Assembly: GCA_963848295.1 (NCBI GenBank) | Contig: CAWKDB010000011.1 | Coordinates: 400,963 to 464,962 of the forward strand | Origin: an uncultured delta proteobacterium | GTDB taxonomy: Bacteria; Myxococcota_A; Polyangia; Haliangiales; Haliangiaceae | Direction: 5' to 3' | DNA length: 64,000 nucleotides | In this document: piece after piece, positions 40,488 through 41,761 of the stretch | Layout: the number at the start of each line of letters is the position of its first letter | Numbering within the stretch: position 1 is the first letter of the stretch | The notes under the pieces: generated by a model | Databases searched by the model: none | What the model was told of the DNA's origin: nothing | What the model saw: the letters and a program-made list of their open reading frames with translations, nothing else | Translations under genes and position numbers: made by a program

Positions 40488-40808
40488 TCACCGCGTGAGC
40501 CTGAACAGCATCGCGCGAACGCGATCGAGTGGCGCCTCGATCGCGGCGAAGTCCTCGGCGGTGATGTAACCGCGCGCCTTCGCGATGAGCAGCGCGGTCG
40601 ACAGCTCGCGCGCGCTGCCGAAGGCGCGGCGGAACATGTCGGGCCGATCGAGGCCGGCGCGTGCGCTCGCTTCGGCGATGTTGAGGGCCACGCTCTCGGC
40701 GGCGCGGCCGATCTCGTCGGCGAGCGACTTGCGGCGAGCCCGAAGCTTCGGCTCGATCGGAGCGAGCTGTTCGAGGACGGTGAGCGACTGAGCGAGGACG
40801 TCGAGCAT
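40488..40808 (-). CDS. Four-helix-bundle protein (23S rRNA IVS protein / Avd family), copy 1
   Basis: Start trimmed to ATG 40808. [41 protein letters not shown] fits the family pattern (Q/E)xxRAxxSIxxNIAEG..GSxxE. Confidence 0.8.
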   Translation of the reverse strand: MLDVLAQSLTVLEQLAPIEPKLRARRKSLADEIGRAAESVALNIAEASARAGLDRPDMFRRAFGSARELSTALLIAKARGYITAEDFAAIEAPLDRVRAMLFRLTR

Positions 40809-40847
40809 TGGCGTGGCCTTTCGTGGATGAGCGGCGCACCGATTCGC

Positions 40848-41015
40848 CGGGGCCGTCTCGCCCGTCGCGCCGCACTCGCGCCGGCGCCGTGACGAGCGCG
40901 GGCACAAATCTCCGCACGCGTCGGTCGATCCAACTCTGCGGCGGTCGTTCGCACGCGTCGGTGGCCTCGGCGCTCGGCGCGGCGCTGGCGCGAAGCGGCG
41001 CAGGGCGACGGCCCC
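40848..41015 (-). other. Extended hairpin (about 38 bp of stem) directly upstream of four-helix-bundle copy 1
   Basis: Arms at 40979-41015 and 40848-40889 pair with one mismatch and a few bulges. Homologous to the element at 41230-41405. Confidence 0.6.
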
Positions 41016-41041
41016 GGCGATCGGAAGCCGCGAGGGCCGAG

Positions 41042-41198
41042 AGGTGGCGACGGCGACGGCATCGGCTTCGGCGTCGGCGGCGGCAGCGGCGTCGGCGGCG
41101 GCAGCGGCGGCGGCAGCGGCGTCGGCGGCGGCAGCGGCAGCGGCTCCGGCTCCGGCTCCGGCTCCGGCTCCGGCTCCGGCTCCGGCTCCGGCTCCGGA
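41042..41198. repeat. GGC-phased microsatellite: GGCGGC/GGCAGC/GGCGTC variants followed by (GGCTCC)9
   Basis: Read directly. Lies exactly between the two divergent cassettes. Confidence 0.9.
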
Positions 41199-41229
41199 AC
41201 TCGACGCTCACTCGCTCGCGCCGATGAGC

Positions 41230-41405
41230 GGAACGTCTCTCTCGCCCTGCGCCGCTTCGCGCGGGTCCCGCGCCGAGCGCCGAGTGCGCCGGCGTCTGCG
41301 ATCGACCGCCGCGGAGTTGATCGGCCGGCGATTGCGGTGGTCAGCGCCCGCGCTCGTCACGGGACCCGCGCGAGTGCGGCGCGACGGGCGAGAGAGAGAC
41401 GTTCC
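41230..41405 (+). other. Extended hairpin (about 41 bp of stem) directly upstream of four-helix-bundle copy 2
   Basis: GGAACGTCTCTCTCGCCCTGCGCCGCTTCGCGCGGGTCCCG pairs with CGGGACCCGCGCGAGTGCGGCGCGACGGGCGAGAGAGAGACGTTCC. GGAGGA lies 7 nt before ATG 41438. Confidence 0.6.
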
Positions 41406-41437
41406 TACCCATCGGCCACTCACTTCGGAGGATCATC

Positions 41438-41761
41438 ATGTCGTTCTACGCCCTCGACTTCGCCCTCGCCGTCCTGCAGCAGCTCGCCCCGATCGAGGCC
41501 AAGGTCCGCCGCACGCGCAAGTCACTCGCCGACGAGATCGTCCGCGCCGGCGAGAGCATCGCCCTCAACGTCAGCGAAGGCCGCATGCGCGTCGGGCTCG
41601 ATCGCCCGGACTTCTTCCGGCGAGCAGCCGGCAGCGCCAGCGAGCTCACCACCGCCCTACTGATCGCGCGCGCGCGAGGCATCATCACCACCGAGGACTT
41701 CGCGGCGGTCGACGAGCCGCTCGACCGCGTCCGCGCGATCCTGTGGCGGCTCACGCACTGA
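41438..41761 (+). CDS. Four-helix-bundle protein (23S rRNA IVS protein / Avd family), copy 2
   Basis: About 60-65% identical to copy 1 by eye. Has [41 protein letters not shown]. Confidence 0.8.

Follow-up and report, generated by a model that had tools for sequence, protein, structure and literature searches.

A tandem array of short period, a long imperfect hairpin and a gene for a small basic four-helix-bundle (4HB) protein form together a module that is real, conserved and widespread in Kofleriaceae-type Myxococcota; it is, as far as we found, undescribed, and sets a known protein family in a new genomic context. Two such units, A and B, lie on opposite strands of a 64,000-nucleotide stretch of contig CAWKDB010000011.1 from an uncultured delta proteobacterium (NCBI GenBank assembly GCA_963848295.1, positions 400,963 to 464,962 of the forward strand); the whole stretch is called the window here, and its positions are counted from its first letter. 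Read 5' to 3', the cassette consists of a hypervariable short-period array, a short spacer, the long imperfect hairpin, a ribosome-binding site, the 4HB gene of ~106 codons and a short 3' hairpin (Table 1). No description of an array-hairpin-4HB module was found in the literature searched. The original prediction, made from the letters of the window alone, had drawn the unit as hairpin plus gene, and this part of it holds; the flanking hexamer arrays, which it had not counted, are nevertheless the most constant companion of the unit.

Array, hairpin and 4HB gene travel together, as the relatives of the two units show. A scan with a degenerate hairpin pattern over one genome per species gave 23 loci, three of them chance matches within coding sequence and 20 true hairpins, nearly all in metagenome-assembled genomes (MAGs) of Kofleriaceae (Myxococcota, Haliangiales). 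The 4HB gene follows at a fixed distance in 17 of these 20, one is cut by the contig end, and the two degraded copies L015 and L023 lack the gene. A tandem array lies upstream in ~90% of ~105 units with enough upstream DNA, a figure that takes in subfamilies only 35-45% identical.

Hairpins, proteins and arrays of the window

Each leader of the window forms a single long hairpin of ~175-200 nt, the ~90-nt interior of which also pairs in part. The minimum free energy (MFE) is -156.6 kcal/mol for leader A and -158.5 kcal/mol for leader B, and in neither case was any of 200 dinucleotide shuffles as stable. The leaders had been predicted to be homologous, with a conserved middle of the stem and with 3' arms ending shortly before the ATGs, and all three points were confirmed: the copies share 82% column identity in alignment; the quoted core strings have exactly two occurrences in 64 kb, one per leader and none elsewhere (chance expectation 0.01-0.09); and the 3' arms stop 33 and ~40 nt upstream of the ATGs. 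The inner stem is conserved as CCGAGCGC / GCGCTCG-TCA-CGG, its CCGAGCGC/GCGCTCG helix and the adjoining one-sided TCA bulge being nearly invariant and the apex freely variable. In hairpin B an outer helix pairs 41192-41198 with 41424-41430, overlapping the Shine-Dalgarno (SD) sequence GGAGG at 41427-41431. The (GGCTCC)n end of the array at 41141-41198 is complementary to the SD region of gene B at 41424-41431 (CTCCGGA/TTCGGAG in the MFE fold), and array M itself could supply the anti-SD sequence for this gene.

A covariance-model search had been proposed together with the original prediction; run over the window, the model (R1) found only these two hairpins, and none without a gene. No Rfam 15 family matched 38000-44000 at E <= 1 except a spurious miRNA, and at gathering score there was no match in the whole window or in 20 related loci; no described RNA family was thus found.

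The pairing of the hairpin is kept up by compensatory change. In the RNAalifold consensus of 27 hairpins, 39 pairs are 95% paired, against 20-53% in slid controls, and in 10 pairs both partners have changed, compared with 4.6 +/- 1.5 in shuffles (0/500 reaching the observed value). Among 46 sense-oriented hairpins, compared on their majority-MFE structure, 25 of 45 pairs change on both sides, with 131 double-change cells versus 52.6 +/- 5.3 in shuffles (again 0/500); 12 of the 13 outer-stem pairs covary. The compensatory stem changes first noted between two copies, for which a statistical covariation test had been suggested, are thus borne out in 46 homologues. The further step from these changes to 'selection on structure' stands in part: pairing is maintained, but selection at the level of RNA does not follow from it, as the wobble statistics given below do not favour the sense strand. 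A DNA palindrome, or conversion from arm to arm, could yield the same compensatory pattern.

Proteins A and B are members of the PF05635/TIGR02436 4HB family. In searches with profile hidden Markov models (HMMs) they score 53.6 and 46.0 bits, respectively, with PF05635 (curated cut-off 33.8) and 50.1 and 48.1 bits with TIGR02436 (curated cut-off 24), and they share 71% identity across 99 aa. The AlphaFold2 model of protein B, computed as a monomer, has four helices with a predicted local distance difference test (pLDDT) score of 96, and Foldseek aligns it to 2GSC, 2RLD, 4DWL and 8UB7 with template modelling (TM) scores of 0.79-0.84; in sequence, XCC0516 (PDB code: 2GSC) is the closest relative of solved structure. 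Both the HMM matches above the curated cut-offs and the matching fold uphold the assignment of the two open reading frames (ORFs) to the family of Avd and of the protein of 23S rRNA intervening sequences (IVS). In a Pfam scan of the unit ORFs nothing besides PF05635 rose above threshold and no transposase domain was found. Searches of the 4HB proteins against PADLOC and PHROGs gave no match, and a defence-system or phage protein was rejected on this ground.

Arrays were located with Tandem Repeats Finder on both outer sides of the unit pair and between the units. Among the ~105 units their periods are mostly 6, 12 and 18, with 7 and 13 also occurring, and the sense strand of the array is C-rich in 62 units and G-rich in 28, a weak strand bias. 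It is unlikely that the arrays are coding sequence: periods of 7 and 13 occur, the repeat units vary and all frames are open.

Two other arrays were seen in the window. One, at 34583-34774, has a period of 6/18/24 (CCGATG/CCGGTG/CCGTAC...) and no adjoining hairpin or 4HB gene; it occupies, in frame, the 3' end of a TPR ORF on the minus strand (34549..35970), where it would encode a low-complexity Gly-X tail, and this array may be coding. The other, at 54233-54372, consists of (TCGGCTTTG) x8.7 followed by a period-12/24 array, and its repeat unit is unrelated to the hexamer arrays.

Table 1 Positions of the parts of units A and B in the window
Feature	Position	Strand	Description
Tandem array L	40201..40439		(CATCGG/GGCATC) x40, period 6, 3' of unit A; Tandem Repeats Finder
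Unit A 3' tail	40440..40487	-	Small GC hairpin; tail homology with unit B and with unit A of L038
4HB gene A	40488..40808	-	106 aa, pI 9.9; PF05635 E 2.9e-14, TIGR02436 E 2.8e-13
Long hairpin A	40831..41031 (main stem 40839-41024)	-	Fold z -5.2 against dinucleotide shuffles; R1 116 bits sense, 38 antisense
Tandem array M	41046..41197		GGCGGC/GGCAGC/GGCGTC, then GGCTCC x9.5; common to both units; Tandem Repeats Finder
Unit B, whole	41198..41830	+	Spacer, hairpin, gene and tail; missing at the orthologous locus of a ~88% identical relative (blastn)
Long hairpin B	41220..41416 (main stem 41230-41405)	+	Fold z -6.9 against dinucleotide shuffles; R1 113 bits sense, 41 antisense
4HB gene B	41438..41761	+	107 aa, pI 9.7; PF05635 E 6.9e-12, TIGR02436 E 1.1e-12
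Unit B 3' tail	41762..41830	+	Small hairpin; homologous to the tail of unit A
Tandem array R	41831..42309		(CGGATCCGGCAG) x37, period 12/18/24, between unit B and the FecR gene; Tandem Repeats Finder

Relatives, history and selection

Relatives of the window 4HB proteins number hundreds at 68-90% identity, many of them on very short contigs, and a HMMER scan gave 787 clusters (50% identity) at E <= 1e-3 and 149 at E <= 1e-10. A metagenome scan with protein alignment added 80 further loci of 35-75% identity. On whether 4HB genes elsewhere carry the same kind of leader, a question raised with the original prediction, these units are informative: 85% have an upstream hairpin with z >= 4, and the median distance from the end of its 3' arm to the start codon is 13-14 nt. 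The layout is shared by a divergent class of paralogues in L009, L013 and L022 (39% identity to protein B), in which both sides of the inner stem are altered, to CCGAACGC/GCGTTCG. The more distant unit at L024 1890-2890 (69% identical protein) has upstream repeats with periods of 26/32/54 and 38 nt, not 6.

Units occupy unrelated genomic contexts, and single MAGs hold at least six, at least four, three, two and two copies. One identical 106-aa protein, P0083, occurs in at least six different genomic contexts; in an alignment of seven contexts of one identical protein, homology starts in the variable array (units such as CCGCTG, CCGGTG and CCGCTT), spans spacer, hairpin, SD and ORF, and ends ~25-30 nt past the stop codon at the small GC hairpin. 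Several contigs terminate in the array. Units of two different 4HB subfamilies often form convergent pairs, and the pairing of units is the rule rather than an oddity of this window. Such tail-to-tail pairs, with ~50-60 nt between the genes, were seen at L009 4374-4971, L013 4389-4784 and L022 3069-3690 and in ~20 of the loci L064-L143, each gene having its own outward-facing hairpin and array.

The original prediction would have failed if the arms had proved to be inverted repeats of a miniature inverted-repeat transposable element (MITE) present elsewhere without the gene. Gene-less copies are only two of the 20 true hairpins, and both are degraded; a MITE is ruled out by the linkage of 17 of these 20, and of both window hairpins, to the gene at a fixed distance. 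At L015 6232-6628 an array and a weakened hairpin (MFE -108 versus ~-135 kcal/mol typically) remain and the 4HB gene is deleted, as in a decayed cassette; at L023 6000-7300 a diverged gene-less hairpin lies amid palindromes like repetitive extragenic palindromic elements (GTCACGTCCCCTGGGGGACGTG) and a 183-nt tandem repeat. IMG/VR holds no protein relative, its 24 DNA-pattern matches all being chance by nhmmer, and PLSDB gave no match to a relative or to the hairpin; no copy carried by a phage or plasmid was found in these searches.

Genes A and B differ by a synonymous divergence (dS) of ~0.58, which makes them old paralogues; the homology between the units stops ~14 nt beyond the stop codons. 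Neighbours of the pair are genes for a C45/AAT-TPR protein, a FecR anti-sigma factor and an extracytoplasmic function (ECF) sigma factor. The ENA contig L038 has a FecR orthologue of 90% identity and the gene order ECF sigma, FecR, AAT of the window, and from FecR to AAT it runs through one continuous array of ~305 nt, hairpin A, gene A, its tail and a short array, with unit B missing. Array R of the window aligns with the FecR-proximal part of this continuous array and array M with a part of it; at the position of array L there is a shorter array, (GCCGAC)n. As the two window arrays on either side of unit B can both be aligned with the L038 array, this unit (~41198-41830) was either inserted into the array of A or lost by recombination between arrays. 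Cassettes are thus gained or lost within repeat arrays, and the proposal that the pair arose by local head-to-head duplication is not sustained, given the dS of ~0.58 and the absence of B from L038 inside a continuous array. An insertion junction or target duplication of unit B was not definable, because both sides are repeats.

L001, a contig from the same metagenome sample as L038, carries a homologous A+B pair, ~83% identical overall, between wholly different flanking genes. The site of this pair is an inversion junction relative to the next relative, L144; an empty site for the pair was not found, the locus being rearranged in that relative. At L001 2800-3120 (minus strand) the A-type gene is frameshifted, which could mean that it is a pseudogene or that the nanopore assembly is in error. 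The homology of L039, a third relative, to the window reaches the array border and ends exactly there (42309; L039 6490). It is exactly at the borders of arrays or units that synteny with close relatives is broken.

Substitution patterns show strong purifying selection on the 4HB protein. Between the gene A orthologues of the window and L038 there are 19 synonymous and two non-synonymous changes (ratio of non-synonymous to synonymous divergence, dN/dS, 0.03), and between copies of P0083 from different contexts 8-21 changes were counted, all of them synonymous. Paralogues within one MAG have a proportion of synonymous differences (pS) of 0.08-0.36 and a ratio of non-synonymous to synonymous proportions (pN/pS) of 0-0.15, and have genome-specific residues in common; because they share such residues at a low pN/pS, within-genome proliferation or conversion, together with strong constraint at the protein level, is implied. 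The hairpin diverges at about half to two-thirds of the synonymous rate.

Roles considered for the hairpin

The mechanism that we prefer, albeit tentatively and at somewhat less than an even chance, is that the hairpin is a transcribed 5' leader of the 4HB mRNA that gates its expression. The base of the hairpin would lock up or abut the SD, so that the long duplex would have to open before translation could occur. Cleavage by RNase III, as on the stems of rRNA IVS, would most plausibly open it; alternatively, a basic 4HB pentamer might bind its own leader in an autogenous control. The GC-rich hairpin would also insulate the cassette from outside transcription, and the arrays would be recombination-prone landing and exit sites, not coding or regulatory sequence. 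The family offers a precedent for RNA binding, the RNA of diversity-generating retroelements (DGRs) lying over the barrel-shaped Avd (bioRxiv 10.1101/2023.10.23.563531), and in the Coxiella IVS RNase III acts on a stem linked to this protein family (PMC4990558).

Subfamilies 40-55% identical to protein B have a shorter, nearly perfect hairpin (60-130 nt), with the SD in its 3' arm and an anti-SD in its 5' arm; in P0083-type units CCTCCGTGATTCGCCCC pairs with GGGGCGAATCACAAGGAGG. The unpaired probability of the SD is below the value obtained with shuffled upstream sequence in 67 of 88 units (Wilcoxon p 3.5e-8), and is <0.1 in 29 of the 88 as compared to none of the 88 shuffled means. With respect to the gene the hairpin has a constant orientation, R1 giving true hairpins 85-160 bits on the gene strand and 31-50 bits on the opposite strand.

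Several observations speak against a leader that gates expression. In the two window units the SD is not significantly more occluded than in shuffles (unpaired probability 0.21 versus 0.22 and 0.39 versus 0.50), and their main stems stop 33-40 nt short of the ATG. In 24 of 27 hairpins the better fold is that of the antisense strand. Wobble counts, in which the sequences of every set are not phylogenetically independent, show no preference for the sense strand: G.U versus A.C in the sense is 78 versus 90, and the corresponding counts are 43 versus 82 in the close subfamily, 32 versus 31 in distant subfamilies, and 51 versus 60 cells, or 14 versus 23 columns, in the basal stem. Neither a sigma-70-like promoter nor an intrinsic terminator was found in 40000-42500. 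Arrays are found without units too. Finally, conversion, hinted at by the hairpins of L001 and L038, could preserve pairing without selection on RNA.

The hint comes from paralogous hairpins of the same metagenome sample, possibly of the same genome: between L001 3154-3331 (minus strand) and L038 6813-6991 the apex and the 3' arm are identical and the 5' arms differ, a pattern that suggests partial gene conversion between copies.

We consider it rather unlikely, but next in line after the gating leader, that the hairpin acts as DNA, as a long imperfect palindrome (cruciform or single-strand hairpin) at which a small mobile cassette is recognised or recombined. The cassette would be moved by an enzyme of the host or one encoded in trans, the arrays would be its target or a by-product of palindrome slippage, and the 4HB protein would be cargo or a DNA-binding accessory. 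Stems that are strand-symmetric or slightly antisense-favouring, and nearly perfect in distant subfamilies, would fit such a site; so would the presence or absence of unit B within an array, the homologous L001 pair in an unrelated context, paralogues of one genome that are each other's closest relatives, synteny breaks at unit and array borders, the many contigs ending in an array, and the clustering of units as head-to-head or tail-to-tail pairs. However, the gene tables of related loci show no transposase, integrase or relaxase as a constant neighbour, neither terminal inverted repeats nor target duplications are definable, and the protein has not decayed although the copies are old (pS up to 0.36), in contrast to the usual selfish ORF. 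As a rule the palindrome ends shortly ahead of the start codon and takes in the SD, for which there is no obvious meaning at the DNA level, and gene-less hairpins are rare and degraded.

Doubtful to a greater degree is a third proposal, in which hairpin RNA and a 4HB pentamer form a ribonucleoprotein (RNP) like that of Avd in DGRs, either as an end in itself, to sequester or present RNA for instance, or as template or primer for a reverse transcriptase encoded in trans. It would account for the folding of both the RNA and its complement, and with it for the strand-symmetric pairing. The fold matches that of Avd within the DGR RNP (8UB7 and 4DWL; TM ~0.8), Avd contacts structured RNA, the proteins are basic (pI 9.7-9.9), and the inner stem is conserved together with its asymmetric TCA bulge, as expected of a protein-binding site; moreover, long msd hairpins of ~160 nt are a feature of myxobacterial retrons. 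On the other hand, there is no reverse transcriptase in the 64-kb window or in the gene tables of related loci, no repeat like the template repeat/variable repeat (TR/VR) pair of DGRs, and no PADLOC or PHROGs match.

That the units are free-living relatives or progenitors of ORF-bearing 23S IVS, i.e. selfish, RNase III-processed stem-loops in intergenic DNA, we hold to be more improbable again. The ORF belongs to the same protein family as those of IVS, the long duplex stem suits RNase III, and IVS are regarded as horizontally acquired selfish elements (PMC4990558). However, the ORF lies 3' of the hairpin instead of being enclosed by it, the 5' flank and 3' tail pairing with z of only -3.1 to +2.4; none of ~100 units lies in rRNA, and the window is without rRNA; and the protein is strongly conserved here, while Coxiella S23p is decaying and not made (PMC4990558). 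An ordinary feature, that is, a chance GC-rich palindrome or a MITE beside a recently duplicated small gene, is refuted: stable folds do arise by chance in high-GC DNA and these genomes often contain simple repeats, but the folds have z of -5 to -7 versus dinucleotide shuffles, conservation in 46 homologues is covarying, position and orientation relative to the gene are fixed, the window has no gene-less hairpin copy elsewhere and the A/B dS is ~0.58.

Our ranking therefore runs from the expression-gating leader through the DNA palindrome and the Avd-like RNP to the free-living IVS relative. Array, hairpin and 4HB gene might also constitute a previously unrecognised small genetic element in which a basic pentamer binds its own hairpin, as RNA or as extruded DNA, and the complex drives or guides the copying of the cassette into short-period arrays. 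The Avd/IVS-protein family would then have a third life-style besides DGRs and rRNA IVS, and ORF-bearing rRNA IVS might have their free-living source in this element; we offer it as a speculation with a small chance of being right.

Two contexts of PF05635 proteins were known before, the Avd of DGRs and the ORF of rRNA IVS, and many orphan copies have had no assigned role for ~30 years. A whole orphan clade (~150 clusters at 50% identity, E <= 1e-10) now has a fixed three-part architecture, and R1 is a covariance model for a structured element that was unannotated. What was a 'hypothetical four helix bundle protein' thereby becomes the subject of testable ideas (binding of its own leader, RNase III-gated translation, arrays as landing sites), and the units are a candidate link between RNA recognition by Avd and the origin of rRNA IVS. 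The structure of the cassette also accounts for the breaking of metagenome assemblies at these loci.

Comparison with known systems

The closest relatives in both sequence and structure are free-standing 4HB genes of the 'S23 ribosomal protein family' (XCC0516, 2GSC; BT_0352, 2RLD; TIGR02436), which are likewise orphan proteins. Some genomes carry several copies of such genes. In the literature searched, no conserved leader hairpin or repeat array is described for them.

With Avd of DGRs the units share the 4HB fold (TM ~0.8 to 4DWL and 8UB7) and a small basic protein encoded beside a structured RNA element. They differ in having no reverse transcriptase, TR/VR pair or target gene and an identity to Avd of only ~12%; moreover, the structured RNA lies 3' of avd in DGRs, whereas the hairpin lies 5' of the 4HB gene here. 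No ORF of at least 200 aa with [YF]xDD occurs in the 64 kb except the C45/AAT peptidase gene, the gene tables of related loci list no RVT domain, and a search for TR/VR-like direct repeats (>=40 nt) in 33000-49000 returned only the tandem arrays and two chance pairs. A DGR is ruled out by the lack of both a reverse transcriptase and a TR/VR pair. The original prediction had described a free-standing module that has neither of these nor rRNA, and so it proves: the motif, repeat and Rfam searches are all empty, and the units are intergenic.

The 23S rRNA IVS of Coxiella burnetii (with S23p) and Leptospira also combine a PF05635 ORF and a long duplex stem within a few hundred nucleotides. RNase III cuts the IVS stem, and IVS are seen as selfish elements acquired by horizontal transfer (PMC4990558). 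The Coxiella IVS sits inside helix 45 of the 23S rRNA, its termini pairing around the ORF, whereas the units described here are intergenic with the hairpin wholly 5' of the ORF, and in eight units the duplex between 5' flank and 3' tail was no better than in shuffles. Unlike the IVS, the units have a tandem array attached, and their protein is under strong purifying selection, in contrast to the decaying and unexpressed Coxiella S23p (PMC4990558). An rRNA IVS in situ, for which the site would be helix 25 or 45 of a 23S rRNA gene, is ruled out: there is no rRNA, the ORF is outside the stem and the unit ends are unpaired.

Two other hairpin-bearing systems are ruled out as well. For an integron attC site the hairpin is on the wrong side, being 5' of the ORF, and the hairpin alignments have no conserved AAC/GTT boxes of the RYYYAAC/GTTRRRY type; for a retron, the ORF after the hairpin encodes a 4HB protein, not a reverse transcriptase, and there is no PADLOC match.

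In layout, the closest likeness is to IS200, a unit of ~0.7 kb with one small ORF and several copies per genome. A 5' hairpin of IS200 blocks outside transcription, and a leader stem hides the SD. Membership of IS200/IS605 is ruled out, the sole ORF here being the 4HB protein and no TnpA/TnpB-type transposase domain being found in Pfam. The likeness is one of architecture only: IS200 encodes an HUH/Y1 transposase, whereas the units of the window and their relatives encode an all-helical 4HB protein, in old copies and with the conservation of a host gene.

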